NCBI GenBank assembly: GCA_023898465.1
Contig: CP060223.1
Location: 448,001-512,000 of the forward strand
Direction of reading: 5' to 3'
From: Candidatus Nomurabacteria bacterium
GTDB taxonomy: Bacteria > Patescibacteriota > Patescibacteriia > HK-STAS-PATE-3
DNA length: 64,000 bases
Position 1 is the stretch's first letter; every line of letters begins with the position of its first letter. This document shows positions 6,839 through 46,569 of the stretch, piece by piece. The position numbers and the translations under genes were made by a program. The notes beneath the pieces are model-generated. The model made no database searches. It saw only the letters and a program-made list of their open reading frames with translations, and was not told the origin of the DNA.

Positions 6839-6987
6839 GGCACAAATTACTCTACTAAAAAGCGGTCAAAAATGCAAGGGGTCACGCTATAAAAAATCCA
6901 AACTTAGCGTGCTGATTAATAAAAACAACGTGCCTTTGTGATCACGCCTATTGTGACTTGTCACTTTAGCCACTATGATGATACCGA

Positions 6988-8398: not shown

Positions 8399-8414
8399 GC
8401 GTTTGGGAGGATGC

Positions 8415-8960: not shown

Positions 8961-8978
8961 GTAGAAGGAGATGAGATC

Positions 8979-10502: not shown

Positions 10503-10505
10503 GGG

Positions 10506-18151: not shown

Positions 18152-18152
18152 C

Positions 18153-19031
18153 ATGACCCAGGATGCTCAAAAACATCCCCTACTCACTGTCTGTATAGTT
18201 CACTACAGAAGGCTTGAGCAGCTCCAAAAAACAATAGATGCTCTTTTTCAAAATACCCGTACTGCATTTCTTCTCCGTGTGTATAACAACGGATACGAGG
18301 ATGATGGAATCAGGGAGTATCTAGATGGTATTAATCAGCGTAGCGATACTACGGTTATCTTTGACACAAAAAATATCGGCTGCTCCCCTGCTCGACACGA
18401 AATTGTAAAAAATATTGAGACACCCTTCATCCTCATGCTTGATGATGACATGTATGTAAATAAAGATTGGGACGTCCCCGTATTTAAAAAATTTGCAGAA
18501 AATCCTACGATTGGCGCTATTGGATTTTCAATTTATAAAATTGATGGGAGCTTCTGGTGGACAGGTGGACGCAATATTATTCTATCAAAAAAAGAAATTA
18601 AAATAGAGCGACCTCATATCGATCCAGAAAAATCAGACCTTGATTTTATAGAGCTTGATGATGTTGCCGCGGGGGCAATGATTTATCGAAAAGAACTTGA
18701 GGATATTATCGTTTGGGACAAGAATTATTTTATCGGCTTTGAGGATCTGGAGAAAGGTCTACATTTAAAACAGAGCAAATATTCCTGTCTCGTCTCAATT
18801 CAAAGTAAATTTATCCACGACAAAATATCTGAGAAACAGGAATACGCTGCTTATAACAATGCACGACGAAATTACCACGCCTACCGGAGAAGTTATCTAC
18901 ATTTTCTAAAGGAAAATAGATATCGTCTTGATTTGAAGCGCCATCTTTTCTACAAATATGTTTGTCTTCTTCCGAATAACATTCTGCAGAAGTTGGTATA
19001 TACTTGGTTAAGCATAAAAAAGAAGGGTTAG
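18153..19031 (+). CDS. GT2-like glycosyltransferase
   Basis: LLTVCIVHYRRLEQL...LMLDDDMYV (DxD-type) then GFEDLE, a GT-A-like arrangement. Confidence 0.6.
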   Translation: MTQDAQKHPLLTVCIVHYRRLEQLQKTIDALFQNTRTAFLLRVYNNGYEDDGIREYLDGINQRSDTTVIFDTKNIGCSPARHEIVKNIETPFILMLDDDMYVNKDWDVPVFKKFAENPTIGAIGFSIYKIDGSFWWTGGRNIILSKKEIKIERPHIDPEKSDLDFIELDDVAAGAMIYRKELEDIIVWDKNYFIGFEDLEKGLHLKQSKYSCLVSIQSKFIHDKISEKQEYAAYNNARRNYHAYRRSYLHFLKENRYRLDLKRHLFYKYVCLLPNNILQKLVYTWLSIKKKG

Positions 19032-19032
19032 T

Positions 19033-20823
19033 ATGAAAGAAATTCTACAGAAGCTTCAGGTGATTTTGCCACCAGGTGATAAGAAAAAAATCTTTGGCAT
19101 TTTTGTTTTAATGCTCATTGCAGCGATTTTAGAAGTTATCGGGATTAGTCTAATTCTTGCATTCATTTCAACGGTTTCTAATCCTGATACTCTTTTTCAA
19201 ATCACCTGGCTTGCCCCAATACTACAACGTGCAAATATTACGGATGCAAAAGGCTTACTTACCTACGGGTCGATTCTTCTCATTGTGCTCTTTGTTTTAA
19301 AAAATGCCTATATTATTTCGTTTCAGTATATCCAATCGCATTTCGTTTATCGCAGATTCAGCGCAATATCATCTCGGCTCTTTAATTCATACATGCGGGC
19401 GCCTTATATTTATCACCTTAATAATAATTCAGCTCGCCTTGTGCGTAATGTAACTGGAGAAACCACCTTACTCGTACACTACATCATGCTCCCCTTGCTG
19501 GTGGTGGTCATGGAATCAATCATGATCATTAGTATTAGTATCTTTCTTTTTGCGGTTGAGCCACTCAATACACTCATAGTGCTTTTCTTTGTCGGATCAA
19601 GTGGTATTTTTTTCCTTCGCTTAGTCAAAAAAAAGATTCAACACTTCGGATCTGAATCTCTGATTGAACGAGAAACTATGATTCGTCGCGTGAATGAAGG
19701 TGTTGGTGGTATAAAGGAAATACTCGTAAAGAATCGACAATCTTGGTTTATTAATGCGTTTACTCAATCGATCCATACTTACGCTAAAGCTGAAACATAC
19801 AAAAACATTTTTAAGATGAGCGCCCGGCCCGTTATTGAAACCGTTGCGGTGGCAGGCATGCTTTTAGTCGCCTTAGTACTCGTGTGGCAAGGACGTGGTG
19901 TAGAGTCGATCTTACCAGTACTAAGTCTCTTCGGCGTTGCCACATTTAAACTTATGCCCTCTTTAGATAAGGTTGTGAGTAATAGTAATGTGATTCGTTA
20001 TTACACTTATACGCTAAACTCAATCCATGATGATATTGCTGAGTTGAGTAAAATTGAAACTCCAATACACACAAACTCTGACAATAAAAAGATTTCCATC
20101 TCATCGACCTTAAGTCTTCAAAAGGTATATTTTCGCTACCCAGGCAGTGAGAAACAAGTGCTGCAAGATGTTAGTCTCACTATTCCAAAAGGTGCGGCAA
20201 TCGGATTTGTTGGCCCTTCTGGAGCTGGAAAAAGCACCATAGTGGATATTATCCTCGGACTACTGTCAATTGATTCGGGGCAAATCCTCGTTGATGGAAA
20301 AGATATAAAAAATACTATGGCAGCCTGGCAAAAAAATATCGGCTATATCCCGCAAACTATTTTCCTGGCTGATAATACTATTCGTAATAATATCGCCTTC
20401 GGACTAAACGACAATGAAATTAATGATGCACAGGTTTCTCGTGCTATTAAAATGGCACAGCTAGAAGAGTTCATTGCCTCCCTACCGCAAGGAGTGAACA
20501 CAATGGTTGGTGAACGAGGTGTTCGCTTAAGCGGTGGACAGAGACAGCGCATCGGTATTGCCCGAGCGCTTTATCATGACCCAGAGGTCTTAGTAATGGA
20601 TGAGGCGACATCCTCGCTTGATAATCAAACTGAAAAATATATTATTGATGCAATTGAAAACCTCAAACGGGATAGAACCATTATCATCGTGGCGCATCGT
20701 CTCAGTACAGTAGAGAATTGTGATAACTTGTTTTTCATCGAAAAAGGACACATAAAAGATTCTGGGACTTACTCACATATCATTCAACAAAACAGCGAGT
20801 TACTCGTAAATGAAAAAAGGTAA
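19033..20823 (+). CDS. Fused ABC exporter (TMD+NBD, MsbA/PglK-like); candidate lipid-linked glycan or polysaccharide exporter
   Basis: Six-helix N-terminal domain; Walker A GPSGAGKST, ABC signature LSGGQRQR, Walker B VLVMDEATS, and an H-loop. Confidence 0.85.
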   Translation: MKEILQKLQVILPPGDKKKIFGIFVLMLIAAILEVIGISLILAFISTVSNPDTLFQITWLAPILQRANITDAKGLLTYGSILLIVLFVLKNAYIISFQYIQSHFVYRRFSAISSRLFNSYMRAPYIYHLNNNSARLVRNVTGETTLLVHYIMLPLLVVVMESIMIISISIFLFAVEPLNTLIVLFFVGSSGIFFLRLVKKKIQHFGSESLIERETMIRRVNEGVGGIKEILVKNRQSWFINAFTQSIHTYAKAETYKNIFKMSARPVIETVAVAGMLLVALVLVWQGRGVESILPVLSLFGVATFKLMPSLDKVVSNSNVIRYYTYTLNSIHDDIAELSKIETPIHTNSDNKKISISSTLSLQKVYFRYPGSEKQVLQDVSLTIPKGAAIGFVGPSGAGKSTIVDIILGLLSIDSGQILVDGKDIKNTMAAWQKNIGYIPQTIFLADNTIRNNIAFGLNDNEINDAQVSRAIKMAQLEEFIASLPQGVNTMVGERGVRLSGGQRQRIGIARALYHDPEVLVMDEATSSLDNQTEKYIIDAIENLKRDRTIIIVAHRLSTVENCDNLFFIEKGHIKDSGTYSHIIQQNSELLVNEKR

Positions 20824-21904
20824 GAATATGAACACATTTAATGAAGAGTTAAATATATCAATAAAAAAGAATTTTCCTAATAATTATCAAGATAATGTTC
20901 TTCAAATACGGTTTAAAAAAAAGAAATTCAAAGTCTGGTTATTAGAAATATTATCGGATTTCACATACAGAATTGGATTGTTCAATCTAATTCTCAAAAG
21001 AAAAAAAATACTAATCGACAGTTTTCATTATCTTTATGATCGACTTAGCGACGACTATTCTAGAGAACTGTTAATACAAGTACTCACGTTCAGATTGTTG
21101 GGAAGTCGTAAAGTAAAGCTCCCGCTAAATGACGGTAACTACTTTAAGAGGATTGAAGACATTGAAAAAAGCGTTGCTAATAAAGACGATTTTCTCTCAC
21201 CAAACTTTTTAGACTGGAAATTATTTTTGTTTGATCTTGAGCAATATGGATATAAGGGAAAAGCATACTCGATAAGCCCAAGCATTTTTAGTAGCTTTGT
21301 ACAGCCGCAATACCAATATAATGGCACACTTATTGCAGCTAAGCCAGGCGACGTTGTTATTGATGCTGGAGCGTGTTGGGGCGAAACGGCTATGTATTTC
21401 GCTGAAAGGGTTAAAGAAAATGGAAAAGTGTACAGTTTTGAATTCCTACCTGAAAACCTCGAGGTAATGAGAAAAAACCTTTCTCTAAACCCAGAATATG
21501 CAAAACAAATTACCATGGTGGAAAAACCCGTATGGTCGAAAAGCAACGAGCCTATAACCTGCAACAACCTTGGTCCAGGAAACAAAGTTATTACTGGTGT
21601 AGATGAAGCATCAACTACTTATCATACAATCTCAATTGATGATTTTGCTGAACAAAATACACTTGAAAACGTTAACTTTATTAAAATGGATATAGAGGGA
21701 TCAGAGCTCGAGGCATTAAAAGGTGCTGAAAATGTAATAAAAAAATTTCGGCCTGTGTTGTCTATTTGCGTCTACCATAAACCAAGTGATTGCAAGCACA
21801 TTCCTGCCTATATTGAAAGCTTAAACTTGGGCTATAAGTTTTATTTTGACCACTATTCAATCTACGGTGAAGAAAGTGTACTCTTTGCGAAAGTCGAAAA
21901 CTAA
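20810..21904 (+). CDS. FkbM-family methyltransferase with N-terminal extension
   Basis: DAGACWGETAMYFAE...VYSFEFLPENLEVMRKNLSLN...FIKMDIEGSELEAL. A diverged paralog of the 17270 gene. Confidence 0.7.
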   Translation: MKKGKNMNTFNEELNISIKKNFPNNYQDNVLQIRFKKKKFKVWLLEILSDFTYRIGLFNLILKRKKILIDSFHYLYDRLSDDYSRELLIQVLTFRLLGSRKVKLPLNDGNYFKRIEDIEKSVANKDDFLSPNFLDWKLFLFDLEQYGYKGKAYSISPSIFSSFVQPQYQYNGTLIAAKPGDVVIDAGACWGETAMYFAERVKENGKVYSFEFLPENLEVMRKNLSLNPEYAKQITMVEKPVWSKSNEPITCNNLGPGNKVITGVDEASTTYHTISIDDFAEQNTLENVNFIKMDIEGSELEALKGAENVIKKFRPVLSICVYHKPSDCKHIPAYIESLNLGYKFYFDHYSIYGEESVLFAKVEN

Positions 21905-21905
21905 T

Positions 21906-23033
21906 ATGCAGAGCTCAAACCAACAACCAATTTATGTAACTAAACCAGCACTCCCGCCACTTGAAGAATTTACTGCTGAGCTAAAAACGATATGGGAGAA
22001 TCGAGTGCTAACAAATAATGGACCATTCCATCAACAATTTGAACTAGCCCTCGCTAAACATCTGGATGTTCCATTTGTATCTGTATTTAGCAATGGAACA
22101 CTTGCTTTGATGACTGCACTGCAATCACTTGATATCCAAGGTGAAGTTATTACTACCCCATTTAGCTTTGTCGCAACAACGCATGCACTTTGGTGGAACA
22201 AAATAACTCCAATATTTGCTGATATTGAATCAACTCATTTTACACTTGATCCTAATAAAACTGAGGAACTTATTACACCTCAAACAAGCGCGATCATGCC
22301 TGTGCACATTTATGGTTACCCATGCAGGACAAAGGAAATCGACATGATAGCAAAAAAGCATAATCTCAAGGTCATTTACGACGCCGCCCACGCCTTTGAT
22401 GTGAAGCAAGATGGTATTTCTGTATTAAATGCTGGCGACCTTTCTGTCCTAAGCTTTCATGCGACGAAAGTTTTTAATACAATTGAGGGTGGTGCGATCA
22501 TTTCCCATAGTGAAGAAATGAAAAATAGGATTGATCACCTAAAAAACTTTGGCTTTGAAGATGAGACAATAATAATTGGTCCCGGCATTAATGCCAAAAT
22601 GAACGAAGTGCAAGCTGCATATGGACTACTTCAACTAAAATATGTTGCTAAATATATAGAAGCCAGAAAAAGAATTGTAGAAAAATATCGTCTAGCACTA
22701 TCTGATATACCTGGCTTGCATTTCTTAGAAGACCAGGAAGGCGTACAAAATAATTACGCCTACTTCCCGATTGTTATTGATACAGAACATTGTATTCATA
22801 CGCGAGATTATATTTATGAGGAATTAAAAAAAGACAATATTTTTTCTCGTAGATATTTTTATCCACTCATAAGTAAAATTCCACTCTACGAAAATCTGGC
22901 GACAACTAAAGCAGCGCAGCTTCCGGTTGCATCTAAAATTAGCGAACAGGTTCTTTGTCTACCCTTATACCATGATTTAAGTGATAGTGATTTTACACGC
23001 ATCATTAGCAGTCTTAAAAGAATGCTTACATAG
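21906..23033 (+). CDS. DegT/DnrJ/EryC1/StrS-family PLP-dependent sugar aminotransferase
   Basis: Conserved LSFHATKVF lysine region, ...NGTLALMTALQSL..., and C-terminal ...CLPLYHDLSDSDF. Start taken at ATG 21906, immediately after the upstream stop. Confidence 0.8.
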   Translation: MQSSNQQPIYVTKPALPPLEEFTAELKTIWENRVLTNNGPFHQQFELALAKHLDVPFVSVFSNGTLALMTALQSLDIQGEVITTPFSFVATTHALWWNKITPIFADIESTHFTLDPNKTEELITPQTSAIMPVHIYGYPCRTKEIDMIAKKHNLKVIYDAAHAFDVKQDGISVLNAGDLSVLSFHATKVFNTIEGGAIISHSEEMKNRIDHLKNFGFEDETIIIGPGINAKMNEVQAAYGLLQLKYVAKYIEARKRIVEKYRLALSDIPGLHFLEDQEGVQNNYAYFPIVIDTEHCIHTRDYIYEELKKDNIFSRRYFYPLISKIPLYENLATTKAAQLPVASKISEQVLCLPLYHDLSDSDFTRIISSLKRMLT

Positions 23034-23045
23034 GAATCCATTCAG

Positions 23046-23747
23046 ATGAAAATAGCAATCATGCAGCCCTATTTTTTCCCTTATATCGGATATTTTCAGC
23101 TGATGAATGCTGTAGATGAATTTGTGGTTTACGACAACATTCAATATACCAAGAAGGGGTGGATCAATCGTAACCGTATCCTCCTCAATGGAAAAATTGA
23201 AACTATTTCTCTAGCGATAAAGAAAGATTCTGATTATCTCGATATACGCGACCGTTGCTTAGCTGATAATTGGATAAAGGAACGAAGTAGTATATTAAAC
23301 AGACTCAAATCCTCTTATCAGAAAGCCCCTTACTTCATTCCTACATATACTCTGGTTGAAAAGATACTCAAACAAGATTCGGTCAATCTTTTTGAATTTC
23401 TTTTTAACAGCCTGCAACTCATCAAAGAATATCTCCACATCCCCACCCCTCTTATCATTTCCTCTCAGGTTCCAGTCGACCATACGCTAAAATCAAGCGA
23501 GCGCGTATTGGCTATTTGCAAAGCACTCCAAGCAAATCAATATATTAATCCAATTGGTGGAACAGAATTATATACAAAAGAGCATTTCCTTAAAAATGGC
23601 GTTGCGCTCCAATTTCTCCGAACTCAAGCACATCATTACCAACAGTTTAATAAAGAACATGTACCCTATCTCTCTATTATAGATGTTATGATGTTTAATA
23701 GTCAGGAAGCGCTAAAGGACTTACTCCAAGAATACATTCTCGAATAA
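23046..23747 (+). CDS. WbqC-like family protein (O-antigen cluster-associated)
   Basis: N-terminus MKIAIMQPYFFPYIGYFQLMNAVDEFVVYDNIQYTKKGWINRNRI matches the WbqC family signature. Confidence 0.6.
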   Translation: MKIAIMQPYFFPYIGYFQLMNAVDEFVVYDNIQYTKKGWINRNRILLNGKIETISLAIKKDSDYLDIRDRCLADNWIKERSSILNRLKSSYQKAPYFIPTYTLVEKILKQDSVNLFEFLFNSLQLIKEYLHIPTPLIISSQVPVDHTLKSSERVLAICKALQANQYINPIGGTELYTKEHFLKNGVALQFLRTQAHHYQQFNKEHVPYLSIIDVMMFNSQEALKDLLQEYILE

Positions 23748-23756
23748 TAATCCCAT

Positions 23757-25061
23757 ATGCCCGCTCAAATAGATAAAAAAATTCGCGTACTCCTCTTCCC
23801 GGCTGGCTCAGAAATTGCTTTTGAAATTTATCACTCGCTTCGTCATAACCTCCACGTAGAAATATTTGGAGCTTCGGGAAAGTCTGATCACGCGAGCTAC
23901 TTATATGATTCCGAGCATTACTTCGAGGGTCCATATCAAATCTCCGACGAAAAATTTAATGACCACTTCACCGAGTTATTAAAAGAGCAAAAAATCGATA
24001 TGGTCATGCCAACACATGACTCAGTAACTGAATTTTTGGCAAAACACCGGGATAAATATCCAGCAAAAATTTTGACTTCTCCATACGAAAGCACAAGGAT
24101 AGCTCGACAGAAGATCCTCACCTACGAGCTTTTTCAAGCTTATGATTTCCTGCCAAAGCAGTATTTACCGCCATATCAGAATCTTGAGTATCCTATTTTC
24201 CTCAAGCCAAATCAGGGACAAGGCGGGAAAGGCACTTGTTTAGTTCATACATATGAAGAGCTGCAGGAACAAACCAGTAAGCAACCTGACTTAGTTGCTT
24301 ACGAATATTTACCAGGCGAGGAGCTGAGTGTTGATTGTTTTACCGATCGACATGGCCAGTTGCGTTTTATTGGACCAAGGACTAGAGCAAGAATTGATTT
24401 TGGCATTTCCTTTAGGACAGAGTCTCGTCCGGTCACTCAGGATATTCAGACAATTGCCGAAACAATAAATACAAAGGTTGCTATTCGAGGCGCGTGGTTT
24501 TTTCAAGTAAAAAAAGATAGCACAGGTAAATATAAACTCATGGAATTTGCAGTTCGCCAGGCAAGTACTATGGGTCTTTATCGTCAAATTGGAGTTAATT
24601 TTGCCTTACTCACGATATTCGACGCGCTCGACATCGATGTAAAGATTCTAAAAAATGACTATCCTATCACGCTTGATCGCAGAATGCTAAACCGATATAA
24701 AGCTGATTTCACTTACACAAAAGTATACATTGATTTCGATGATACAATTATCATCAATGAAAAAATTAACATTATCGCACTGCAGTTTCTCTATCAATGT
24801 AAATATGCTCATAAGAAAATTTGTCTTCTCACAAAACATGAGTTCGATCTCGATGAGACATTACAGAAATACTGCCTTGCAAAAAATCTATTTGACGAGA
24901 TTGTGATTTTACATCCTGGAGAGGACAAGACTGATCACATCGTTGCCGACGATGCAATTTTTATTGATAACTACTTTTTTGATAGAGAAAAAGTAAAGCA
25001 GCGTCACAATATTCCTGTATTTGATGTAGACGCCATCGAGAGTTTATTACTTAATACATAA
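23757..25061 (+). CDS. ATP-grasp enzyme fused to C-terminal HAD-like domain
   Basis: ATP-grasp core (YPIFLKPNQGQGGKGTCLV...EYLPGEELSVDCF) through ~aa 300, then a ~130-aa domain opening with IDFDDTII (HAD motif I, DxDxT). Confidence 0.6.
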   Translation: MPAQIDKKIRVLLFPAGSEIAFEIYHSLRHNLHVEIFGASGKSDHASYLYDSEHYFEGPYQISDEKFNDHFTELLKEQKIDMVMPTHDSVTEFLAKHRDKYPAKILTSPYESTRIARQKILTYELFQAYDFLPKQYLPPYQNLEYPIFLKPNQGQGGKGTCLVHTYEELQEQTSKQPDLVAYEYLPGEELSVDCFTDRHGQLRFIGPRTRARIDFGISFRTESRPVTQDIQTIAETINTKVAIRGAWFFQVKKDSTGKYKLMEFAVRQASTMGLYRQIGVNFALLTIFDALDIDVKILKNDYPITLDRRMLNRYKADFTYTKVYIDFDDTIIINEKINIIALQFLYQCKYAHKKICLLTKHEFDLDETLQKYCLAKNLFDEIVILHPGEDKTDHIVADDAIFIDNYFFDREKVKQRHNIPVFDVDAIESLLLNT

Positions 25062-25064
25062 GGC

Positions 25065-26030
25065 ATGTTCCGCTGGAAGAAACTAGGAAAAGTATTTGAC
25101 CCAACACAAAACGGAAATGATGCGTGGATGCAGACTTTTGCTCAAGCTCCTGCCACTTTAGTTTTTGATTCTTTTGTTCGAGTATATTTTTCTTGTCGGC
25201 CACTTCCGGACAAAAATGGTCAAGCGACAAGCTATGCCGGCTTTGTTGATCTTGATCGAAAAAACCTTTTTAATATTCTTAGGATCTCAAAAAAACCCGT
25301 GCTTCCGCTTGGAGAAATTGGTAGTTTTGACGAGTTTGGTATTATGCCCATCTCAGTCATTCGAGATAAGCATCGATTACTCGCTTACTATGGCGGATGG
25401 ACTCGATGCGTTTCCGTTCCATTCAATATCGCTATTGGTCTGGCTGAAAGTAAGGACAATGGGGAAACTTTTGAAAAAATTGGCCCTGGACCCGTACTCT
25501 CGTATAGCCCTGATGAGCCGTTCTTAGTTGCGGTTCCTAAAATTAGGAAATTTCAAAATCGCTGGTTTCTCTGGTATACCGCCGGGACTCATTGGAGAAA
25601 AGTAAATGGAAAGACTGAGGCGGTTTATGGCATCCGGATGGCTACATCAACTGACGGCGTTACATGGAAAAAAGAGCATCGAAAAATTATTCCAAACGTT
25701 TTAGGTGAGAACGAGGCGCAAGCAAGCGCTGACGTTTATTTTGCTAACGACATCTATCACATGTTTTTTTGCTATCGGCATACTTCTGATTTTCGTACAA
25801 ATAAAGATCGGGCTTATCGGATTGGCTATGCTTACTCTCAGGATGGATTTCATTGGCAGCGTGACGATTCACGGGTAGGCATCGACATATCGACTGAAGG
25901 ATGGGATTCAGAAATGATCTCTTTTCCTCATATTTTTTCACTGGACGGAAAAACCTACATGCTCTACTTGGGAAATAACTTTGGTCGAGAAGGGTTTGGA
26001 ATTGCTGAACTTGAAGGGAGTTTACAATAA
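25065..26030 (+). CDS. Five-bladed beta-propeller glycosidase/phosphorylase-like protein (GH43/GH32/GH130-like fold), paralog 1
   Basis: Shares WKKLGKVFDP, FRTNKDRAYRIGYAYSQDGFHWQRDD, EGWDSEMISFPHIF and GFGIAELE blocks with the next gene. Family assignment rests on my recollection of these motifs. Confidence 0.45.
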   Translation: MFRWKKLGKVFDPTQNGNDAWMQTFAQAPATLVFDSFVRVYFSCRPLPDKNGQATSYAGFVDLDRKNLFNILRISKKPVLPLGEIGSFDEFGIMPISVIRDKHRLLAYYGGWTRCVSVPFNIAIGLAESKDNGETFEKIGPGPVLSYSPDEPFLVAVPKIRKFQNRWFLWYTAGTHWRKVNGKTEAVYGIRMATSTDGVTWKKEHRKIIPNVLGENEAQASADVYFANDIYHMFFCYRHTSDFRTNKDRAYRIGYAYSQDGFHWQRDDSRVGIDISTEGWDSEMISFPHIFSLDGKTYMLYLGNNFGREGFGIAELEGSLQ

Positions 26031-26031
26031 T

Positions 26032-26985
26032 ATGCACTGGGAAAAACTCGGAAAAATTTTTGATCCGTCCCAACACAATCTTCCAAACGATTGCAAGCTT
26101 TTCGCGCAATCGCCTCAGGTGTTACTTTTGGACGACCGAATACGGATATATTTTTCTACCCGACAAGCAGATACACCCACAACCTACCTCAGTCATATTG
26201 CTTATGTCGATTTTACAAATGACTTTTCTAAAGTACTTGAAGTCTCAAAAAAAACCGTACTTCCTTTAGGGAAACTTGGCACCTTTGATGAACACGGCAT
26301 CTTTCCAATGAATGTCTTAAGGTTTCAAGATCGAGTACTAGGGTTCACAAGCGGCATTTCTCGTAGATCTTCTGTATCAGTGGAAACATCTATTGGCCTG
26401 GTGGAAAGCTTTGATAACGGAGAAAGCTTTCAGCGAAATAGTGATGGCCCTATCCTTACCTCCTCTCTTCATGAGCCATTTATGGTAGGCGATCCTTTTG
26501 TCCAAGCATACGAAGGAAAACTTCATATGTGGTACATCAACGGAGTACGATGGAAACCAAAAACAGCCCAGGAACCTGCTGCACGAGTATACAAAATTGC
26601 TCATGCAACTTCCTTAGACGCCATACATTGGCAAAATGATAATCGTCAAATTATTAGTGACGTTCTCAATGCCGATGAGTGTCAGGCGCTTCCTACTGTA
26701 ATTAAAATTAAGCAAAGGTACTACATGTACTTTTGCTATCGCGAAGCCAGTGATTTTCGAACAAACAAAAATCGTGCGTATCGAATTGGATGCGCCTATT
26801 CGGATGACCTTACCCATTGGACTCGAGATGATGCCCAAGCTGGTATCACTGTTTCAGACCAGGGCTGGGATTCAGAAATGCAGTGCTACCCTCACGTCTT
26901 TCAAAAAGATGATGTAATATATTTACTTTATAATGGAAACGCCTTCGGCCGCGATGGTTTTGGCTTAGCTAAGCTTGTTGGATAA
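26032..26985 (+). CDS. Five-bladed beta-propeller glycosidase/phosphorylase-like protein, paralog 2
   Basis: WEKLGKIFDP, FRTNKNRAYRIGCAYSDDLTHWTRDD, QGWDSEMQCYPHVF and GFGLAKL. About 40-45% identical to paralog 1. Start at ATG 26032, 1 nt after the upstream stop. Confidence 0.45.
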   Translation: MHWEKLGKIFDPSQHNLPNDCKLFAQSPQVLLLDDRIRIYFSTRQADTPTTYLSHIAYVDFTNDFSKVLEVSKKTVLPLGKLGTFDEHGIFPMNVLRFQDRVLGFTSGISRRSSVSVETSIGLVESFDNGESFQRNSDGPILTSSLHEPFMVGDPFVQAYEGKLHMWYINGVRWKPKTAQEPAARVYKIAHATSLDAIHWQNDNRQIISDVLNADECQALPTVIKIKQRYYMYFCYREASDFRTNKNRAYRIGCAYSDDLTHWTRDDAQAGITVSDQGWDSEMQCYPHVFQKDDVIYLLYNGNAFGRDGFGLAKLVG

Positions 26986-26990
26986 TACCT

Positions 26991-27938
26991 ATGAATTCTG
27001 ATTCTCCTCTCGTCAGTGTAGTATGCGTCACATACAATCATGGTCCATATATTGCAGAAGCAATAGAAAGTTTTTTACAGCAAGAAACTGACTTCCCTTT
27101 TGAAATTATCATTGGAGAAGACTTCAGTACAGACGAAACCAGGGAAATTTGCTTGGAATATGCAAAAAAGTACCCTGATAAAATCCACCTAGCGATTTCT
27201 GATGGAAATGTCGGGGCACGTAATAATTATTTTCGCGCTTTGTCAGCCGCACGAGGAAAATATATTGCATTTTGTGAAGGAGATGATTACTGGTCGGATC
27301 CAAAAAAGTTGGCAATCCAAATTGGCTACATGGAAAAACATCCAGAGTGCAGTCTCACCTTCCACTCGGTTCGAATTATCAACGGAGATAAAGCAACCAA
27401 TAAGACGATTCGTCCCTTTAACAAAAAAACAATTATTCCAAAAAATACCTTTTTTGGCTACGGCACGATGGCACCATCCCCCACTCTTGTGTATCCCAGA
27501 AAATATATTATAGACCCACCTGATTGGCTTCGTCACTCGCCTGTTGGGGATATACCCTTGAAGCTCTATCTCTCTCAACTTGGTACAGTAGTATATCTGG
27601 ATAAAATCATGGCCATGCGAAGAATTGGCGTCGAGGGTTCGTGGAGTAAACGCATGCAAACTTTTTCATACCGACAAAAACTCTTTCCAGGTATGATTGT
27701 AATGCTTGAAGGTTTTAACGAATTTAGTAAATATATATATGCCTATCAAGTACTAAAAAAACAGCTAAGCTACGAAATTAAAAGTGTGAAAAATCCAATA
27801 ACAAAAGTAAGACAAATGCTAAAACTCATCCGAACAAAATATTCAAAATCGTACTCTTCTCTTTCGCTTACAAAAAAAATGTTTGCAATTGGTAATCTAT
27901 TTATCACAAGCATAGTTGAACAGGTAGCACGTCGTTAG
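26991..27938 (+). CDS. GT2 glycosyltransferase
   Basis: VSVVCVTYNHGPYIAEAIESFLQQ...EIIIGEDFSTDETREI...GDDYW, GT-A with a DxD-type motif. Confidence 0.75.
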   Translation: MNSDSPLVSVVCVTYNHGPYIAEAIESFLQQETDFPFEIIIGEDFSTDETREICLEYAKKYPDKIHLAISDGNVGARNNYFRALSAARGKYIAFCEGDDYWSDPKKLAIQIGYMEKHPECSLTFHSVRIINGDKATNKTIRPFNKKTIIPKNTFFGYGTMAPSPTLVYPRKYIIDPPDWLRHSPVGDIPLKLYLSQLGTVVYLDKIMAMRRIGVEGSWSKRMQTFSYRQKLFPGMIVMLEGFNEFSKYIYAYQVLKKQLSYEIKSVKNPITKVRQMLKLIRTKYSKSYSSLSLTKKMFAIGNLFITSIVEQVARR

Positions 27939-27940
27939 CC

Positions 27941-28831
27941 ATGGAACCCACTACATATCCAAACAGCCCGGTGTTCTTAATAGGCTCCCCGCGCAGTGGA
28001 AAAACAATACTGCACACCTTACTTGCGCAAGGTAATGACTTCGCCTGGTTTTCCCAATACTCAAGCAAATTTTATACTCATACTTGGCCGGCTTATTTAC
28101 CACGTATATATCAAATTCCATGGCTGGGAAGATATTTACAAAAACATGCTCGTTTACGCATACTCCCCCACCCTGAAGAAATTTCTCACAAGTTTATTCC
28201 AATAATGACTCAGTACGGTTCACTTGAGCAAACTCATGTGAATGAAGCAAATCAAAAAAAACTGCAGCACTGGGTGAGAAAACAAATGCAAGCGCAGAAA
28301 AAAAATCGTATGCTCATTGACTGCGGCCGACCTGCTCGCATATCTTTTTATCACAAAGTCTTTCCTGAGGCAAAATTTATTCACCTTATCAGAGATGGGC
28401 GCGCAGTAGCAGTTGAAATGCTCCGTAGTTACCCTTATATGTTTACTGAAAAAAGTAGTATTGATAGTTATTTTATCCAGACGCCCGAGGAATTTAAAAA
28501 CTACTTACCTAAAAAAAGCGATGATCCATCTCGACCTCTCATTTTAGCCGCCCTGTACTGGAAAATGTCTGTTCGTGAAATTGAGCGGCAAGCCAACCCA
28601 CTTGGAGAGGATGTTTTATCCATCCGATTTGAGGATATTCTCCAAAATCCTACTTCGGAGCTAGAAAAAATCTGTCGCTTTGTGGAATCGGCAAACTCTG
28701 CTAAAATCATCAAGTCTGCTAAGGTTCAGCGATTTCAGTATAAGGATGCCTCCCAGCTCATGGACAAGCAAGGCTACGAGAAATTGACCCATATACTGCA
28801 TGACGAGCTAAAAAACTATGGCTACATTTAA
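27941..28831 (+). CDS. Sulfotransferase family protein
   Basis: 5'-PSB motif FLIGSPRSGKTILH and 3'-PB-like IRDGRAVAVEM (RDGR), with a FIHLIRDGR context. Confidence 0.65.
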   Translation: MEPTTYPNSPVFLIGSPRSGKTILHTLLAQGNDFAWFSQYSSKFYTHTWPAYLPRIYQIPWLGRYLQKHARLRILPHPEEISHKFIPIMTQYGSLEQTHVNEANQKKLQHWVRKQMQAQKKNRMLIDCGRPARISFYHKVFPEAKFIHLIRDGRAVAVEMLRSYPYMFTEKSSIDSYFIQTPEEFKNYLPKKSDDPSRPLILAALYWKMSVREIERQANPLGEDVLSIRFEDILQNPTSELEKICRFVESANSAKIIKSAKVQRFQYKDASQLMDKQGYEKLTHILHDELKNYGYI

Positions 28832-28858
28832 CCATTTAGTATTCAGAAAAGTAAGCAT

Positions 28859-29575
28859 ATGATGGATCTCGATATACTTAAGAAACGTGCTGATGATCGC
28901 TGGTTTGTAGTGGATCGATCAAAAGGCAAAAGGGTCTTAGAAATCGGTTGCGTAAACCATACTATTGAAGGAATTGAGGAGCAGCGCAGGATTGGCACTT
29001 GGCTTTTTGATTATCTCCACGTGTATGGAACTCATGCTACTGGTATTGATATTGACCAACCAGCAATTGACCATTTAGCCAAACAGGGCTACGACATCCG
29101 GTATGGAGATGGGCAAGATTTTAATCTGAACGAAGAGTTTGAAGTTATTATTGCATCAAAAGTAATTGATCATCTTACCAATATTGATGGTTTCCTAAAA
29201 AGCTGTAAAAAGCATCTCTCTCCCGACGGTAAACTCATTATCACTGATGACAACATTCTCTGCGTTCCTCAGCTCCTGACATGGTATGCAAAGAAAAATG
29301 TTGGACATCCTGACGATGATATAACTGTAAAAATTATTCCGGAGTACTTCCGCCTCTTTGTGAGGCGCTATGGCTTTGAGGTCGAAGAAATACATTATGT
29401 AGTTGGCACAGGAAATTCTTTTCTCTTCAAGCTGTTCCGTTTCATAAAAAAAATAATGCCAAAGCGCCTAGTACATGAACCGCTTTTTTATCCAAACTAC
29501 ATCATTCAATTACGTCATCGTACGAATGAAGAGAGCGAGAAGGGTGCTACTGCACATCACTCGCATCAGCACTAG
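28859..29575 (+). CDS. Class I SAM-dependent methyltransferase
   Basis: VLEIGCVNH (motif I-like), ...IIASKVIDHL..., LSPDGKLIITD (motif III-like). Confidence 0.55.
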   Translation: MMDLDILKKRADDRWFVVDRSKGKRVLEIGCVNHTIEGIEEQRRIGTWLFDYLHVYGTHATGIDIDQPAIDHLAKQGYDIRYGDGQDFNLNEEFEVIIASKVIDHLTNIDGFLKSCKKHLSPDGKLIITDDNILCVPQLLTWYAKKNVGHPDDDITVKIIPEYFRLFVRRYGFEVEEIHYVVGTGNSFLFKLFRFIKKIMPKRLVHEPLFYPNYIIQLRHRTNEESEKGATAHHSHQH

Positions 29576-32057: not shown

Positions 32058-32059
32058 TA

Positions 32060-34020: not shown

Positions 34021-35367
34021 CTATCGCCCAATTCCTCGATAGTGCACGCCGGCCTTTTGCAAAGCAGACTTATCAAGCGCATTTTTACCGTCGATGAGGA
34101 CTTTTACATGATATTTCTTCCAGAGCTTGTTTGGGATATCGAGAAATGCCTGATGGTTTGTCACCAGAATCACTGCGTCTACCTTTGATAATAGAGCCTC
34201 TAGGCTCTCCACTGTGGATTTTTGTGGTACATGAGGGTCATACACCTCTACTTGCGCGCCAAGCTCTCTAAGACGCTCCTGAATGCGAAATGAGGGACTC
34301 TCGCGCACATCATCGATGTTGGCCTTATACGCTACCCCTAATATGCCTACTTTCGTACCCTTCACAGGCAGAGCAACTTGATTTAGTGCCTCTATGAGCT
34401 GCTTTACGGTATACTCTGGCATTCCATTATTAATCTCCCTCGCTAGCTTAAGGAACTTATGATCAAAGCCAATCTGCCTTGCTCGCTCAATGAGATAATA
34501 TGGATCAACGGGTATACAATGACCTCCAACGCCGCATGAAGGATAATGCGCTAAAAAGGCAAAAGGCTTTGTCTGAGCACCTTCAATAACATCTAAAATA
34601 TCAATGCCCAATTTGCTAAATGATTGTGCCATCTCATTCACAAAGGCAATATTAATATCGCGAAAAGAATTTTCCATTATCTTTGTCGCTTCCGCGGCCT
34701 TGAGAGATTCCATTGGCCGGATTGGCGCATCAATAATACTCTCATACAGCCGGATTGCCTTTGCTCTACCTTTTTTGGTATACGCGCCAATTACCCTGGG
34801 AATCGTTCGCACATTCCATTTTGCATTACCCGGATCAATTCGTTCAGGGCAATGCGCTAAGGTAAAATCTTTACCAGCATGAAGCCCAGATGTTTCTAAC
34901 ACGGGAAGGAGAACTTCTTCGCAAGTTCCAGGATTAATGGTGGACTCAATAATAATCAATTGTCCTTTGTGAAGATGCTTCGCAATTTTTTTACATGCAT
35001 CGATTACTGGACCATAATCAGGATTGTATGCGTGGTCAACTGGTGTAGGTACGCAAACAATTATAGCTTTTGCCTTTTTCACTACACTAAAATCAGTTGT
35101 AGCTAAGAAAGGATTCTTTTTTAAATTTTTACGGACTCGCACATCATCAATCGGAGATACACCAGCGCTGATCATTTCTGCTTTTTTTTGACTTCGAACG
35201 ACTCCCAGGACCTTATATCCCTTTTCAACAGCTAAGCATGCAAGTGGAAGACCAACATAACCCAATCCAACAACGGCTAAAGCCCCTTTCCTAGTTTTTT
35301 GTGAACGAATAGCACGCTTTTTACTTCGCATACTTTTGCTGCTTGAAAAACCAAGAGACTGTTTCAT
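34021..35367 (-). CDS. UDP-sugar 6-dehydrogenase family (UDP-GlcNAc/UDP-ManNAc dehydrogenase-like, WbpA/WecC type)
   Basis: LAVVGLGYVGLPLA Rossmann motif and catalytic Cys context GGHCIPVDPYY. A basic N-terminal extension suggests the true start may be the internal Met at about 35331. Confidence 0.8.
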   Translation of the reverse strand: MKQSLGFSSSKSMRSKKRAIRSQKTRKGALAVVGLGYVGLPLACLAVEKGYKVLGVVRSQKKAEMISAGVSPIDDVRVRKNLKKNPFLATTDFSVVKKAKAIIVCVPTPVDHAYNPDYGPVIDACKKIAKHLHKGQLIIIESTINPGTCEEVLLPVLETSGLHAGKDFTLAHCPERIDPGNAKWNVRTIPRVIGAYTKKGRAKAIRLYESIIDAPIRPMESLKAAEATKIMENSFRDINIAFVNEMAQSFSKLGIDILDVIEGAQTKPFAFLAHYPSCGVGGHCIPVDPYYLIERARQIGFDHKFLKLAREINNGMPEYTVKQLIEALNQVALPVKGTKVGILGVAYKANIDDVRESPSFRIQERLRELGAQVEVYDPHVPQKSTVESLEALLSKVDAVILVTNHQAFLDIPNKLWKKYHVKVLIDGKNALDKSALQKAGVHYRGIGR

Positions 35368-36256
35368 TTATACCCATAGCAACATCAATGCTCGGCCCCC
35401 AATTCAACTCCTTGGCACTTTTTTGCACATCAAGACTACTCGCCATCAATTCACCGGGAATCTCCGGACCGTGCTTTGCTTCAAGATCGCTGTGCATGGA
35501 ATCTTTTATTAAGCTCCAAAGCTGGCTGATGCTGGTTTCTTGACTCGTACCAACGTTGAATATGCCGACACGATCCGAGTCAGCCGCCGCAATAAAAGCC
35601 CGCACAACGTCGGAAACGAATACGAAGTCTCGAGTTTGCGATCCGTCACCATTAATTTGCGGTGAACGATTGTGCAATACGTGATCAATAAATATTGCCA
35701 CTACACCCGCTTCACCCTTTGGATCTTGCCGAGGGCCGTATACATTTGCTAAGCGGAGTGCTGCGCTGGGCATCTTATACACTTTCGTATAAGCCGAAAG
35801 ATAATACTCAAAGGCCCGCTTCCCTATTCCGTACGGTGAAATAGGTGCAGCTAAACCAGTTTCTGGAGTTGGTCTTGCCTCATCTGCATCATAAATCGCC
35901 CCGCCGGTTGAGGCAAAGAGAAACTTCTCTACCTGTATTTCACGAGCCGCTTCAAGTAACTTAATACTACCAATAATATTAATATTGGCATCTTCGTCTG
36001 GATGTTCAAGTGAGTAGCGTAGATTTTTTTGCGCAGCTAAGTGAAATATCTGGTTCGGCTTAAACCTTTTAATTTCCTGAGCGGTCTTATCTTTACAGAT
36101 ATCAAGTTCTAAGAAATCAACCTCCGGATGCAAATACTCTTTATTGCCGGTGGACAAATCATCTATCACCAATACTCGATTACCCTGGGAGAGCAGCGCG
36201 TCAACCAAGTGAGAACCAATAAATCCAGCTCCCCCAGTTACGACGACTTTGCTCAT
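35321..36256 (-). CDS. NAD-dependent nucleotide-sugar epimerase (GalE/WbpP-like)
   Basis: [31 protein letters not shown] (YxxxK), [12 protein letters not shown]. Confidence 0.8.
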
Positions 36257-37428
36257 AGGTATTTTTTGGCCGCCGATCGGAATTTAGCAGCTAAGGAGAG
36301 TTGCTCCCAACTAAAGCTTGCTTCTTTACGACCGAAGTGTCCATACGCTGCGGTTGGTCGATAAATAGGCCTACGTAAATTAAGGTGTTGGATAATACCA
36401 CCAGGAGTCAAATCCGCCACCTGGCGAACGATCTTTTCTAATTTACCATCGCTAATGACACCTGTGCCTTTTGTGTCGATAAGCACGCTGATAGGTTCAG
36501 CAACGCCAATGACGTAGGCGAGCTGTATTTCGCACTTCTTGGCAAGCTTTGCGCCGACAATATTTTTGGCAACATGTCTAGCCATGTATGAAGCTGATCG
36601 GTCAACCTTGGAAGGATCTTTACCAGAGAATGCTCCACCACCATGGCTACCGTGTCCTCCATAGGTATCGACAATAATTTTTCGTCCGGTCAAGCCTGCA
36701 TCAGCTGGAGGTCCACCCTTCACAAACTTTCCTGTCGCATTAATGAAGTGACGTGTTTTATTATCCATCCAGCGTCCTGCTATTGGTCGGATGACGTGCT
36801 TCATGACATCGCGCTCGACTTTTTTCTCGCTTACTTTTTCATTATGCTGCGTAGCAATAACAACAGTGTTTAAACGCTTTGCTTTACCATTTTCGTATTC
36901 GATCGCTACCTCAGTTTTACCATCCGGCCCTAAATAAGGCATTATTCCTTTCTTTCGCACGTATGCTAAGCGACGAGAAAGTTTATGAGACAGAATAATC
37001 GGCAATGGCATTAACTCAGGTGTTTCATCAGTGGCATAACCAAACATGAGTCCCTGATCACCTGCTCCTTGCTTTTTATACTTACCCTTACCCTCATCTA
37101 CACCCTGCGCAATATCAGCGCTCTGCTCATCAATTGCGACGATCACGCCGCAGTCCTGCCAATGAAATCCCATATTTGGATCAGTGTAGCCAATATCCCG
37201 AATAGTCTCTCGAGCTATTTTTGCAATATCAACATATCCCTTTGTCCTTATCTCTCCTGCAACAACAATCAAGCCGGTAGTTGCCATGGTTTCGACACCT
37301 GCGCGACTATGGGGATCCTGTCGTAATAATTCGTCAAGTATTGCGTCTGATATTTGATCGCACACCTTATCAGGGTGGCCTTCGGTTACTGACTCTGAAG
37401 TAAAGACATGATGTCGATTCGTTGACAT
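36253..37428 (-). CDS. metK: S-adenosylmethionine synthetase
   Basis: [57 protein letters not shown] and IGVAEP, near-identical in pattern to E. coli MetK throughout. Confidence 0.95.
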
Positions 37429-37447
37429 GCTCCTAGTTCCTTAATTA

Positions 37448-38473
37448 TTACTGGTCTTTTGAAATACTAGCTGAAATATCAATATTTTTTGCGCCTTTAA
37501 AGTAATCAATGGTCCGGCGTAAGCCTTCTGATAAGGCCACTACTGGAAACCAGCCTAAGCGCTCTTTTGCCAAAGCTATATTAGGCACGCCCTGTATAAC
37601 TGTTGACTTAGTGTGTTCGGTAAAACGAGATCCTGATGTACTGCCCGTAAGTTCTTGAATGTACTTTACTACATCCTCTAGGCGATGTTGATCAGGACTA
37701 CCCAGATTAACTGGCCCTAACTCGCTTGATTTCATGAGTCGCAGTAAGCCCTCCACAATATCGCTGATGTAACAAAGAGTCGTGGTATCATCTGCTTTAC
37801 CGTATACCGTAATAGTTTCGTTACGCAACGCCGCATTAATCATTTCCGGCACCATTCTACCATCGTCTACGCGCAAGCGAGGACCATAGGTGTTAAAGAG
37901 TCGGGCGATTTTTGCCTTTAATGCGTATTTTTCTCGGTAGTGCACGGTTAAGCTTTCGGCAAAGCGCTTACCCTCACTAAAGGCCGATCGCGACCCAACC
38001 GGATTCACATAGCCCCAATATTCTTCTGGGTATGGAGTCCTTTCCATGGGTTCGCCATAAATGGCATCAGAAGAAGCCAAGAGAAAACTGGCTTGATATT
38101 TTTTCGCCATTTCAAGAGCATTCCGAGTTGCTTGAGCATTTGCTACCAGTGTTTCAACTGGCATCTGTAGATAATCCTTTGGTGAAGTCGGAGAGGCGAA
38201 ATGATAAATTTCCTGCACTCCTTGGAACTCCACTTGAAAAGGTTTAAGACCTGGCTCGTGATCAAGATCTATCGGATCAGACAAATCATGCTTCACAAAC
38301 TCAAAATTTGGATTTTGGAGAAGATGATTTATGTTTTCTTCTCGACCAGTTGAAAAATTGTCTAAACAAATAACCTTGTGTTGCTTCACCAGCTCATCAC
38401 AAAGATGAGATCCAATGAATCCTGCTCCACCTGTTACTAATATGTTTTTTCTTTCAAAAATGGGTCTGCTCAT
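37448..38473 (-). CDS. UDP-glucuronate decarboxylase (UDP-xylose synthase)-like SDR
   Basis: [53 protein letters not shown] closely parallels the UXS/ArnA-C N-terminus. YxxxK is present (YSEGKR). Confidence 0.7.
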   Translation of the reverse strand: MSRPIFERKNILVTGGAGFIGSHLCDELVKQHKVICLDNFSTGREENINHLLQNPNFEFVKHDLSDPIDLDHEPGLKPFQVEFQGVQEIYHFASPTSPKDYLQMPVETLVANAQATRNALEMAKKYQASFLLASSDAIYGEPMERTPYPEEYWGYVNPVGSRSAFSEGKRFAESLTVHYREKYALKAKIARLFNTYGPRLRVDDGRMVPEMINAALRNETITVYGKADDTTTLCYISDIVEGLLRLMKSSELGPVNLGSPDQHRLEDVVKYIQELTGSTSGSRFTEHTKSTVIQGVPNIALAKERLGWFPVVALSEGLRRTIDYFKGAKNIDISASISKDQ

Positions 38474-38482
38474 ACGCAGTAC

Positions 38483-39199
38483 TTAACGATAATGACCTAA
38501 AATGTCATGGTATCGAACACTAAGAAGCTCCCAAAAAGTTTTTATATAATCTGAGGGACGCACCTTACTAGCAAAATCATTCTTCCAAGTCACAGGAATT
38601 TCCTTCATCGTGAAGTGAAATTTTTTTGCCAGGAAAAGTATTTCAAAATCAAATCCCCACCCTCGTAGCTGCTGCTTTTGAAAAAGCATACGGCAGCGCT
38701 TACTATACAGTTTAAATCCGCATTGCGTATCTTCTATGCCGGACACTGCTAACCATTGAATCAACTTATTTCCAATTCGTCCCAGCGTTACCTTCACCGA
38801 AGATTGACGAACGGTAATATCAGCTTCGGGTAATGCTCGCGAGCCAATCAACACATCATACTGCTTACGCTCCGGCCAAAACTTAGCGAAATCTTGAATC
38901 GGAGTGGAGAGATCAGTATCGGTCAGCAACACCCAGACACCTCTTGCTTCTAGCATTCCAGCCTTAACGGCAGCACCTTTACCGCCATGTGGCACAGAAT
39001 GCACCCGGACCGGCTTCCCATAACCAGCTGCTAATCGAGCAGTACCATCCGTGCTACCATCATCCACCACCACTACCTCGTAGCTAAGATCGGGGTAGTG
39101 CTTGGGGAAATATTCAAGGATAGTTTCCAAGCTGGGAGGCAGGCGCTTCGCTTCATTATACGCCGGCAAAACAATGGAAAGCTCAACAGGATTTGACAT
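38483..39199 (-). CDS. GT2 polyprenyl-phosphate glycosyltransferase (DPM/DPG synthase-like, soluble)
   Basis: LSIVLPAYNEAKRLPPSLE...VVVVDDGSTDGT...LTDTDLS. No C-terminal TM helices. Confidence 0.75.
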   Translation of the reverse strand: MSNPVELSIVLPAYNEAKRLPPSLETILEYFPKHYPDLSYEVVVVDDGSTDGTARLAAGYGKPVRVHSVPHGGKGAAVKAGMLEARGVWVLLTDTDLSTPIQDFAKFWPERKQYDVLIGSRALPEADITVRQSSVKVTLGRIGNKLIQWLAVSGIEDTQCGFKLYSKRCRMLFQKQQLRGWGFDFEILFLAKKFHFTMKEIPVTWKNDFASKVRPSDYIKTFWELLSVRYHDILGHYR

Positions 39200-46032: not shown

Positions 46033-46569
46033 CTAATGAAGATTGGTTTGCAACTGAGCCTTTTGTAGGAGCTTCATTGCCTCGCTAGTAATTACCTGCA
46101 CCTTTTCCTCCCCTTTATCAACTATTTTTTGTAGCACTTCAAAGGGGTGTAGCTTGGTAAAGTTTCCTTGCACCACTTTCTTTGTTTGCTTCTGAATTGC
46201 TCGCGGCATAACTTTTACGACATCATTCATCATATGCTGAGGGGAAAAGATATATGCTGCAGTAACCTTACCACTGTGCATAATCGTCTGCAGACTGCTC
46301 TCTAACTGACGGAGAAACTTCACTCGCAAGGAAGCCTCCACATCTTCTCGCACCGCGCCAGAAGCAAGAGTTTTTCCACCTCGGCGTTTGGCAAAATGGC
46401 CCTCCTTATCTGAGTATTCCGGCGCCTCGATTCTATATGAGAGCACGTTTTCTATTGTGCCATTCATTGCCTCATAGAGCTCGAGGGATTTTGTCCCAGT
46501 CACAATAAACAAGGCGCGCTCATTAGTAAACTGAGGCAGTGTTTGCGTAATATGTAATCTTCGTCGCAT
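46033..46569 (-). CDS. Hypothetical protein, possibly eRF1-like/host-attachment-protein-like fold
   Basis: Start chosen at MRRRLHITQ (rc of cat 46567-46569) because a perfect AGGAGG SD lies 5 nt upstream; the track ORF begins at an upstream GTG. The pattern ...EGHFAKRRGGKTLASGAVREDVEASLRVKFLRQL...AAYIFSPQHMMNDV loosely recalls the Host_attach family. Confidence 0.4.
   Translation of the reverse strand: MRRRLHITQTLPQFTNERALFIVTGTKSLELYEAMNGTIENVLSYRIEAPEYSDKEGHFAKRRGGKTLASGAVREDVEASLRVKFLRQLESSLQTIMHSGKVTAAYIFSPQHMMNDVVKVMPRAIQKQTKKVVQGNFTKLHPFEVLQKIVDKGEEKVQVITSEAMKLLQKAQLQTNLH

Follow-up and report, generated by a model that had tools for sequence, protein, structure and literature searches.

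We analysed a 64-kb stretch of DNA (hereafter the window) from the one-contig genome (1,082,586 bp) of a Candidatus Nomurabacteria bacterium, a lineage of the Parcubacteria group (Ca. Nomuraibacteriota) within the Patescibacteria group, or candidate phyla radiation (CPR). The gene at 27941..28831 on the forward strand encodes a sulfotransferase-family protein, USN53985.1, with an unusual active site. A lysine (K21) stands in the 5'-phosphosulfate-binding (PSB) loop, an aspartate (D127) occupies the place of the catalytic lysine of tyrosylprotein sulfotransferases (TPSTs), and a glutamate (E159) replaces the conserved serine of the 3'-phosphate-binding (3'-PB) helix. These three mechanism-defining residues change together at least five times in the family, which raises the question of whether the lysine moved or the donor changed. 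We consider it rather probable that USN53985.1 is a cytoplasmic sulfotransferase dependent on 3'-phosphoadenosine 5'-phosphosulfate (PAPS) and that it would act by TPST-like in-line transfer with a relocated lysine and would sulfate the glycan of the operon that encodes it.

USN53985.1 is a sulfotransferase-family protein by hidden Markov model (HMM), by profile-to-PDB search, and by predicted fold. Its match to Pfam Sulfotransfer_3 (PF13469; E-value 1.3e-18) is well beyond chance, with 68.5 bits where the cutoff is 27, and extends over positions 1-211 of the 216 in the profile; Sulfotransfer_1 (PF00685) is matched with 35.6 bits where 22 would suffice. When the PDB was searched with a profile made from 25 homologues, it retrieved the tick TPST (3e-25), human TPST1/2 (1e-23 to 1e-21), and the OLS and CurM sulfotransferase domains (about 1e-17 to 1e-16), followed by weaker matches to Stf1 and Stf9. 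The AlphaFold2 model (predicted local distance difference test score 90.7, predicted template-modelling score 0.89) shows the alpha/beta fold with a central parallel sheet, the PSB strand-loop-helix, and the 3'-PB strand-turn-helix, and the best 50 Foldseek matches in the PDB were all PAPS enzymes of the sulfotransferase fold. An earlier note on this DNA had proposed a carbohydrate-type sulfotransferase, with a P-loop kinase as the competing classification. Reclassification as a kinase fails because Pfam gives sulfotransferase families and no kinase family at E <= 0.01, and the predicted fold is no nearer to that of kinases. The label "carbohydrate-type" could not be upheld by homology: the nearest characterised relatives are the TPSTs, the CurM/OLS domains, and Stf9/Stf1, its similarity to NodH-, NoeE-, and KpsS-type enzymes is not significant, and the sole NCBIfam match, NoeE, reached 21 bits against a cutoff of 500, far below the threshold. 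NCBI already annotates the protein as "MAG: sulfotransferase [Candidatus Nomurabacteria bacterium]" (MAG, metagenome-assembled genome), and its assignment to the family was therefore already on record.

In the tick TPST, R74 serves as the general acid, E95 as the general base, and K154 as the transition-state-stabilising lysine, corresponding to R78, E99, and K158 of human TPST2; the activities of the tick alanine mutants at these three positions were significantly reduced or below detection (PMC10951654). We mapped the residues of USN53985.1 by profile alignment and, for R18, E80, and D127, by three independent MAFFT alignments. R18 of the PSB loop GSPRSGKT (residues 15-22) aligns with tick R74 and belongs to the RxG element of PF13469 (R18-S-G20), which at least 85% of the family retains. 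The putative general base, E80, lies in a PxxE motif and aligns at the sequence level with tick E95 and human E99. The RDGR motif (R151-D-G-R154), at the start of the 3'-PB strand-turn-helix, aligns with the TPST "RDGRA"; R151 provides the strand-end arginine, and G153 is invariant in the MAFFT alignment A1. R18, S19, G20, T22, E80, R133, R151, D152, R154, W207, and E231 are each the residue kept in at least 85% of the family.

The departures concern three positions. Owing to K21, the PSB loop is a perfect Walker A motif (GxxxxGK[ST]). D127, at the end of the Walker-B-like strand MLID, aligns with tick K154 (human TPST2 K158), the TPST transition-state lysine. E159 stands at the R+8 position of the RxxxDxxxS-type spacing, the place of the 3'-PB-helix serine, which is one of the features that define the superfamily (PMC11625862). 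The PSB loop and the RDGR motif named in the earlier note are thus both present, at residues 15-22 and 151-154, but the loop is not the clear motif that the note described: it is atypical, with lysine at position 21 where 125 of the 136 scored relatives have threonine or serine, and it comes with loss of the 3'-PB serine and of the TPST lysine. Lacking both the 3'-PB-helix serine and the TPST-type lysine, USN53985.1 is filed as a variant within PF13469 and not as a typical member.

When 1.84 billion representative proteins were searched with a profile, 17,406 relatives emerged, and our tallies cover the top 147 near-full-length ones. We refer to proteins with threonine or serine at position 21 as T/S-type and to those with lysine as K-type. 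K21 is found in 11 of the 147 representatives. The residue pairs at positions 21 and 159 were T/S in 96 proteins and S/S in 29, followed by K/E (7), K/D (2), K/A (1), and K/S (1); position 159 is therefore serine in all 125 T/S-type proteins and Glu, Asp, or Ala in 10 of the 11 K21 proteins. Position 127 is lysine in 124 of the 125 T/S-type proteins; among the 11 of the K-type it is aspartate in ten and glutamate in one. The T21K exchange is always paired with loss of K127, both in 11 of 11 representatives and in all 18 K21 copies derived from loci (several of these represent the same gene more than once). Ser159 was never lost without K21 except in P0172 (E159), which is N-terminally truncated so that its residue 21 lies beyond the truncation. 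In addition, K-type proteins often lack R123 and K268 and carry glycine or serine in place of T129; all other conserved positions are common to both types.

The K21 proteins form five separate clades in a neighbor-joining tree from which the six discriminating columns were masked, and the number of clades was six to eight in 12 bootstrap resamples. Genome and metagenome scans added K-type loci that follow the same rule, with K/D/E, K/E/D, K/E/E, K/Q/S, and K/A/E at positions 21/127/159. USN53985.1 belongs to clade (i), about seven clusters at 50% identity (P0001-4 and P0054-56), within which K21, D127, and R130 are invariant but position 159 is not (E, A, E, E, S, D, D). Among the matches listed in a metagenome scan for extra members of this clade, only relatives of at most 31% identity appeared. 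The joint appearance of T21K and loss of K127 in several clades fits a compensated relocation of one catalytic lysine. In neither the superfamily review (PMC11625862) nor the TPST mechanism paper (PMC10951654) did we find a description of the K21/acid127/acid159 wiring. We also observed an L-type active site (L21/E127/S159) with lysine at neither position 21 nor position 127, so K127 can be lost without K21; it occurs at loci L015, L024, L025, L093, L094, L096, L098, L102, and L104, in some of them fused into proteins of 470-815 residues.

Family and fold, the retained R18, E80, and R151, and the operon context are supported directly, and we infer that USN53985.1 would be catalytically active. 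In the mechanism we favour, R18 would act as the general acid on the leaving 3'-phosphoadenosine 5'-phosphate (PAP), E80 would deprotonate the acceptor hydroxyl, and the displacement at sulfur would proceed in line, as in the TPSTs. The transition-state lysine would have "moved" from the end of strand 123-127, where D127 now stands, to position 21 of the PSB loop, as the Walker A lysine. From there, K21 could supply the charge stabilising the transferring sulfate, with D127 and E159 as its possible counter-charges. The K-type arrangement would then be a variant wiring of one and the same active site that has arisen repeatedly.

The same exchanges might instead signal a changed donor or chemistry. 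A Mg-nucleotide bound through the Walker A lysine and the Walker-B-like acid would then allow the enzyme to phosphorylate the glycan from ATP or to sulfate it from adenosine 5'-phosphosulfate (APS), and the ATP branch could possibly produce a methyl-phosphate cap together with the adjacent methyltransferase, as WbdD does. The exact fit of GSPRSGKT to GxxxxGK[ST] and the hhhhD ending (MLID) of strand 123-127 speak for such a change, and an acid in place of the 3'-phosphate serine, with the basic positions 123 and 268 relaxed in the K-type, is the expected look of lost 3'-phosphate recognition. A window without PAPS genes in a reduced host genome, and a methyltransferase gene 27 nt downstream in an ABC-exporter operon, would also suit it. 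Nevertheless, we consider a changed donor unlikely: no Pfam kinase family matches the protein at E <= 0.01, the sulfotransferase-specific R18 and the 3'-PB residues R151 and R154 are retained, the variation of position 159 inside clade (i) resembles relaxed constraint and not a new ligand, and in one K-type clade the gene shares its cluster with a gene for PAPS synthase. Furthermore, we know of no APS- or ATP-using member of the sulfotransferase fold. It is decidedly improbable, in our estimate, that the scaffold has repeatedly re-evolved a Walker A lysine and a Walker-B acid and dropped 3'-phosphate recognition, with APS or Mg-ATP as the donor. If a donor without the 3'-phosphate were nevertheless in use, it would provide an anionic surface-glycan cap without the full PAPS pathway, perhaps methylated in a WbdD-like manner by the adjacent methyltransferase, and the interest of the system would rise sharply.

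Use of PAPS is the likeliest reading because one K-type clade clusters with an ATP-sulfurylase/APS-kinase gene, and PAPS would be the donor of USN53985.1 as well. In Burkholderiales MAGs, locus L055 encodes a homologue of the K21/E159 type in a cluster syntenic with that of L085. L055 ends inside a PUA_2 domain; the L085 cluster continues on one strand via two family 4 glycosyltransferase (GT4) genes and one DHHA1-like gene, after which comes a gene for a fusion of PUA_2, ATP sulfurylase, and APS kinase. As the L055/L085 cluster holds this gene, PAPS synthesis has a genetic link to at least one K-type lineage. The cassette lies at L085:4425-7126 and L055:16165-17477, and its DHHA1-like protein is a possible PAP phosphatase on a weak match of 22 bits. 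Of about 160 loci retrieved, 9 have an APS-kinase gene in the vicinity of the family member, and in Nitrososphaera MAGs the two are directly adjacent.

Several observations weigh against PAPS use by a TPST-like mechanism. Pfam scans of every window ORF (open reading frame) of at least 150 residues, covering 64 kb of the genome, revealed no sat, cysC, cysDN, or cysQ, and a six-frame motif scan of the window for APS kinase, ATP sulfurylase, and CysD was likewise empty, in agreement with the earlier note, which had seen no PAPS-synthesis genes in the window. PAPS genes are patchy in Patescibacteria (PMC12239599; PMC12114108). The K-type clade linked to PAPS synthase (L055) is not clade (i), and RNGL replaces RDGR there. 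Two of the exchanged residues are themselves a difficulty, given that the 3'-PB-helix serine, a defining feature, is E159 and the TPST transition-state lysine, a catalytic one, is D127. Of R123 and K268, which K-type proteins often lack, USN53985.1 keeps R123, and because of the lost basic residues the K-type pocket is much less cationic than that of the T/S-type.

The acceptor is suggested by the gene context. The sulfotransferase gene is the 14th of 15 genes in a same-strand glycan operon (Table 1), which runs from an epimerase/dehydratase through a family 2 glycosyltransferase (GT2), a GT4, an FkbM methyltransferase, a second GT2, the ABC exporter, and another FkbM methyltransferase to a DegT aminotransferase, WbqC, an ATP-grasp protein, two GH130-like propellers, a further GT2, the sulfotransferase, and a methyltransferase. 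The earlier note had described the gene as co-transcribed with its GT2 and methyltransferase neighbours. The tight packing, with gaps of 2 and 27 nt, agrees with this description, but co-transcription is inferred from gene spacing only, because consensus scans for promoters and terminators between 13.8 and 30 kb gave counts at the shuffled expectation (39 against 43.2 and 13 against 12.5).

USN53985.1 begins directly at strand 1 and the PSB loop, with neither an N-terminal signal peptide nor a transmembrane segment, and is therefore predicted to be cytoplasmic. Sulfation would accordingly precede export and take place on a nucleotide sugar or a lipid-linked glycan. We envisage that the operon's lipid-linked glycan would receive a sulfate ester on one of its sugars, that the ABC exporter would then flip this glycan, and that the neighbouring GT-C enzymes would pass it on. 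The two GT-C genes are convergent with the operon, and their products are the likely extracytoplasmic transfer step.

All clade (i) relatives with informative flanks (n = 3) adjoin polysaccharide genes. P0004 lies within a Wzx/Wzy locus, P0054 is found in a Wzx/Wzy locus next to ManC, GT1, flippase, Wzy, GT2, and initiating-transferase genes, and P0056 (L011) directly follows a GT2 gene on a 2.5 kb contig. From this context, USN53985.1 is a probable glycan sulfotransferase. A conserved, orthologous GT2-sulfotransferase pair could not be upheld: the order recurs in L011, but the N-terminal domains of the two GT2 proteins are only 32% identical, and in L010 the upstream gene is unrelated.

An active PAPS sulfotransferase could also modify a non-glycan acceptor, namely a protein tyrosine (in an S-layer protein, pilin, or secreted peptide, as with TPSTs and RaxST), a lipid, or a small molecule. 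The K-type clade L123/L126 lies outside any glycan context, among genes for an MsrA-like protein, a PAS regulator, a radical SAM enzyme, an SDR protein, and a GNAT protein, which would be compatible with such an acceptor, as would the lack of significant similarity of USN53985.1 to NodH-, NoeE-, or KpsS-type enzymes. In this genome, however, the gene sits between GT2 and methyltransferase genes in a 15-gene glycan operon, only 2 nt from the former, and three independent clade (i) relatives also adjoin polysaccharide genes. The closeness to TPSTs says little about the substrate, as the acceptor-binding regions are not conserved in the fold (PMC11625862). We regard a non-glycan acceptor as quite unlikely.

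Finally, the gene might have come in with a low-GC glycan island by horizontal transfer and be an orphan or inactive passenger, either because the host has no PAPS or because the catalytic lysine and the serine are lost. The GC content of the operon is 0.395 compared with 0.46 in the rest of the window, no CPR genome occurs among the best 80 GTDB-representative loci, the nearest homologue is only 40% identical, decayed glycosyltransferase fragments lie at 4.7-7.5 kb of the window, and the residues that D127 and E159 replace matter in relatives. We judge this scenario very unlikely nonetheless. Low GC is usual for surface-polysaccharide loci, and the ORF is intact, tightly coupled to its neighbours, and identical in two independent Logan assemblies (contigs of 27-31 kb), in which the neighbours also occur. 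The same substitutions in at least five clades, with the other motifs conserved, speak for selection and not decay.

Table 1. Coordinates in the 64-kb window of the sulfotransferase gene, its active-site elements, and the surrounding glycan genes.
Feature	Position	Strand	Basis or remark
Sulfotransferase gene (USN53985.1)	27941..28831	+	ATG start; 296 aa; Sulfotransfer_3 family
PSB loop G15-S-P-R18-S-G-K21-T22	27983..28006	+	R18 catalytic Arg
E80, putative general base (PxxE motif)	28178..28180	+	kept in >=85% of family
D127, C-terminal end of beta-strand 123-127 (MLID, Walker-B-like)	28319..28321	+	DSSP strand E123-127
R151-D-G-R154 (RDGR), start of 3'-PB strand-turn-helix	28391..28402	+	invariant in MAFFT alignment A1
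E159, replaces conserved 3'-PB-helix Ser	28415..28417	+	Ser in 136/147 representatives
15-gene same-strand glycan operon	14231..29575	+	Pfam; gaps -14 to +27 nt
Fused ABC exporter	19033-20823	+	operon member
GT2 glycosyltransferase	26991..27938	+	PF00535, 91 bits; stop 2 nt before sulfotransferase ATG
Class I S-adenosylmethionine-dependent methyltransferase, last operon gene	28859..29575	+	PF13489, PF08241, PF08242; 27 nt past sulfotransferase stop
Two GT-C (PMT_2) membrane glycosyltransferases, 836 and 650 aa	29547-32057, 32060-34012	-	PF13231, 29.1 and 45.1 bits; polytopic
UDP-sugar dehydrogenase, epimerase, MetK, UXS-like decarboxylase/epimerase, small GT2 (supply of sugar nucleotides and cofactors)	34021..39199	-	Pfam
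MetK (S-adenosylmethionine synthetase), USN53991.1	36253-37428	-	Pfam

Within the operon, the two GH130-like genes are tandem paralogues of about 320 residues (25065-26030 and 26032-26985, forward strand) with weak, sub-threshold, or borderline matches to the GH130, GH32N, BNR_4, and GINT1_N beta-propeller families; they could be glycoside phosphorylase-like or transferase-like enzymes used biosynthetically. A low-GC block at 16000-34000 (0.36-0.40, compared with 0.44-0.53 in the flanks) overlaps the operon and the two GT-C genes, in keeping with horizontal exchange of a surface-glycan island. MetK lies among sugar-nucleotide genes and beside an operon with four methyltransferases; the cofactor for methylation is therefore supplied locally, and nothing equivalent for PAPS is found nearby.

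Elsewhere in the window, the region 4685-7491 holds remnants of a second polysaccharide locus that look like decay, namely a 219-residue GT4 without most of its N-terminal domain, a 175-residue GT2 covering only profile positions 59-161, and a 167-residue Polysacc_synt flippase fragment covering the first 100 of 274 positions. A GC-rich segment (0.52-0.53) on the forward strand at 8403-12284, unusual in composition for the window, encodes a FlgD_ig/Por_Secre_tail-like protein, a 507-residue protein without a family, and a 592-residue M23-peptidase protein. On the reverse strand, a 780-residue TrwB/TraG-like type IV coupling-protein homologue (50239-52581) and an AAA/TniB-like ATPase (53529-54530) are possibly parts of a mobile element or one for DNA uptake. 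A Host_attach/baeRF family-12 (release-factor-like) protein, also on the reverse strand (46033-46689), adjoins tRNA-Gln(CTG) at 46914-46987, the only hit of the Rfam and tRNA scans of the window.

If the enzyme is active, the surface glycan of a CPR episymbiont whose genome measures about 1.1 Mb would bear sulfate esters, and the cell surface is where CPR bacteria meet their hosts. We found no report in the literature of sulfation, a sulfotransferase, or a sulfated glycan in CPR bacteria. The recurrent K21/acid127/acid159 combination could also be regarded as a natural experiment on the sulfotransferase active site in relation to P-loop-kinase ancestry. Motif screens that demand the 3'-PB-helix serine or the strand-end lysine would misjudge K-type proteins.

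Compared with known systems, USN53985.1 shares with P-loop nucleotide kinases the Walker A motif GxxxxGKT and the hhhhD strand end, whereas its fold, its HMM matches, and all its other motifs are of the sulfotransferase type. WbdD is a kinase/methyltransferase chain terminator that forms a methyl-phosphate cap in ABC-exporter systems; WbdD-type systems resemble the present operon in their adjacent methyltransferase but have a different fold, with a eukaryotic-like kinase domain. The CurM and OLS sulfotransferase domains (PDB 4gbm and 4gox) are parts of polyketide synthases, which are absent here, and they sulfate beta-hydroxyacyl-acyl carrier protein and thereby activate decarboxylation. Work of the kind proposed for USN53985.1 is done by NodH, NoeE, KpsS, LpsS, and the Xss enzymes of Synechocystis, which carry out PAPS-dependent sulfation of glycans or glycolipids and are encoded in the biosynthetic cluster; synechan biosynthesis by the Xss enzymes has reportedly been described in one study. 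These carbohydrate systems usually come with identifiable PAPS supply genes, such as nodPQ, and no PAPS supply gene was seen in the 64-kb window. None of these carbohydrate sulfotransferases comes from a CPR organism or shows a meaningful sequence match to USN53985.1. NodH is also classed in PF13469 (PMC11625862). The mycobacterial Stf9 and Stf1 (PDB 2z6v and 2zq5) are only 12-14% identical to USN53985.1 and larger (365-392 residues). To our knowledge, the genes of Stf9, Stf1, and Stf0 do not lie in glycan operons with an ABC exporter. The superfamily review describes Stf0 as a glycolipid sulfotransferase (PMC11625862). The TPSTs (human TPST1/2 and the tick enzyme, PDB 8w5z) share with USN53985.1 the GxPRSG PSB loop, the PxxE general base, and the RDGRA 3'-PB motif, but they have threonine at loop position 21, the strand-end lysine (K154/K158), and the 3'-PB serine where USN53985.1 has K21, D127, and E159. 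TPSTs are Golgi enzymes acting on protein tyrosine, whereas USN53985.1 is a predicted cytoplasmic bacterial protein encoded in a glycan operon.

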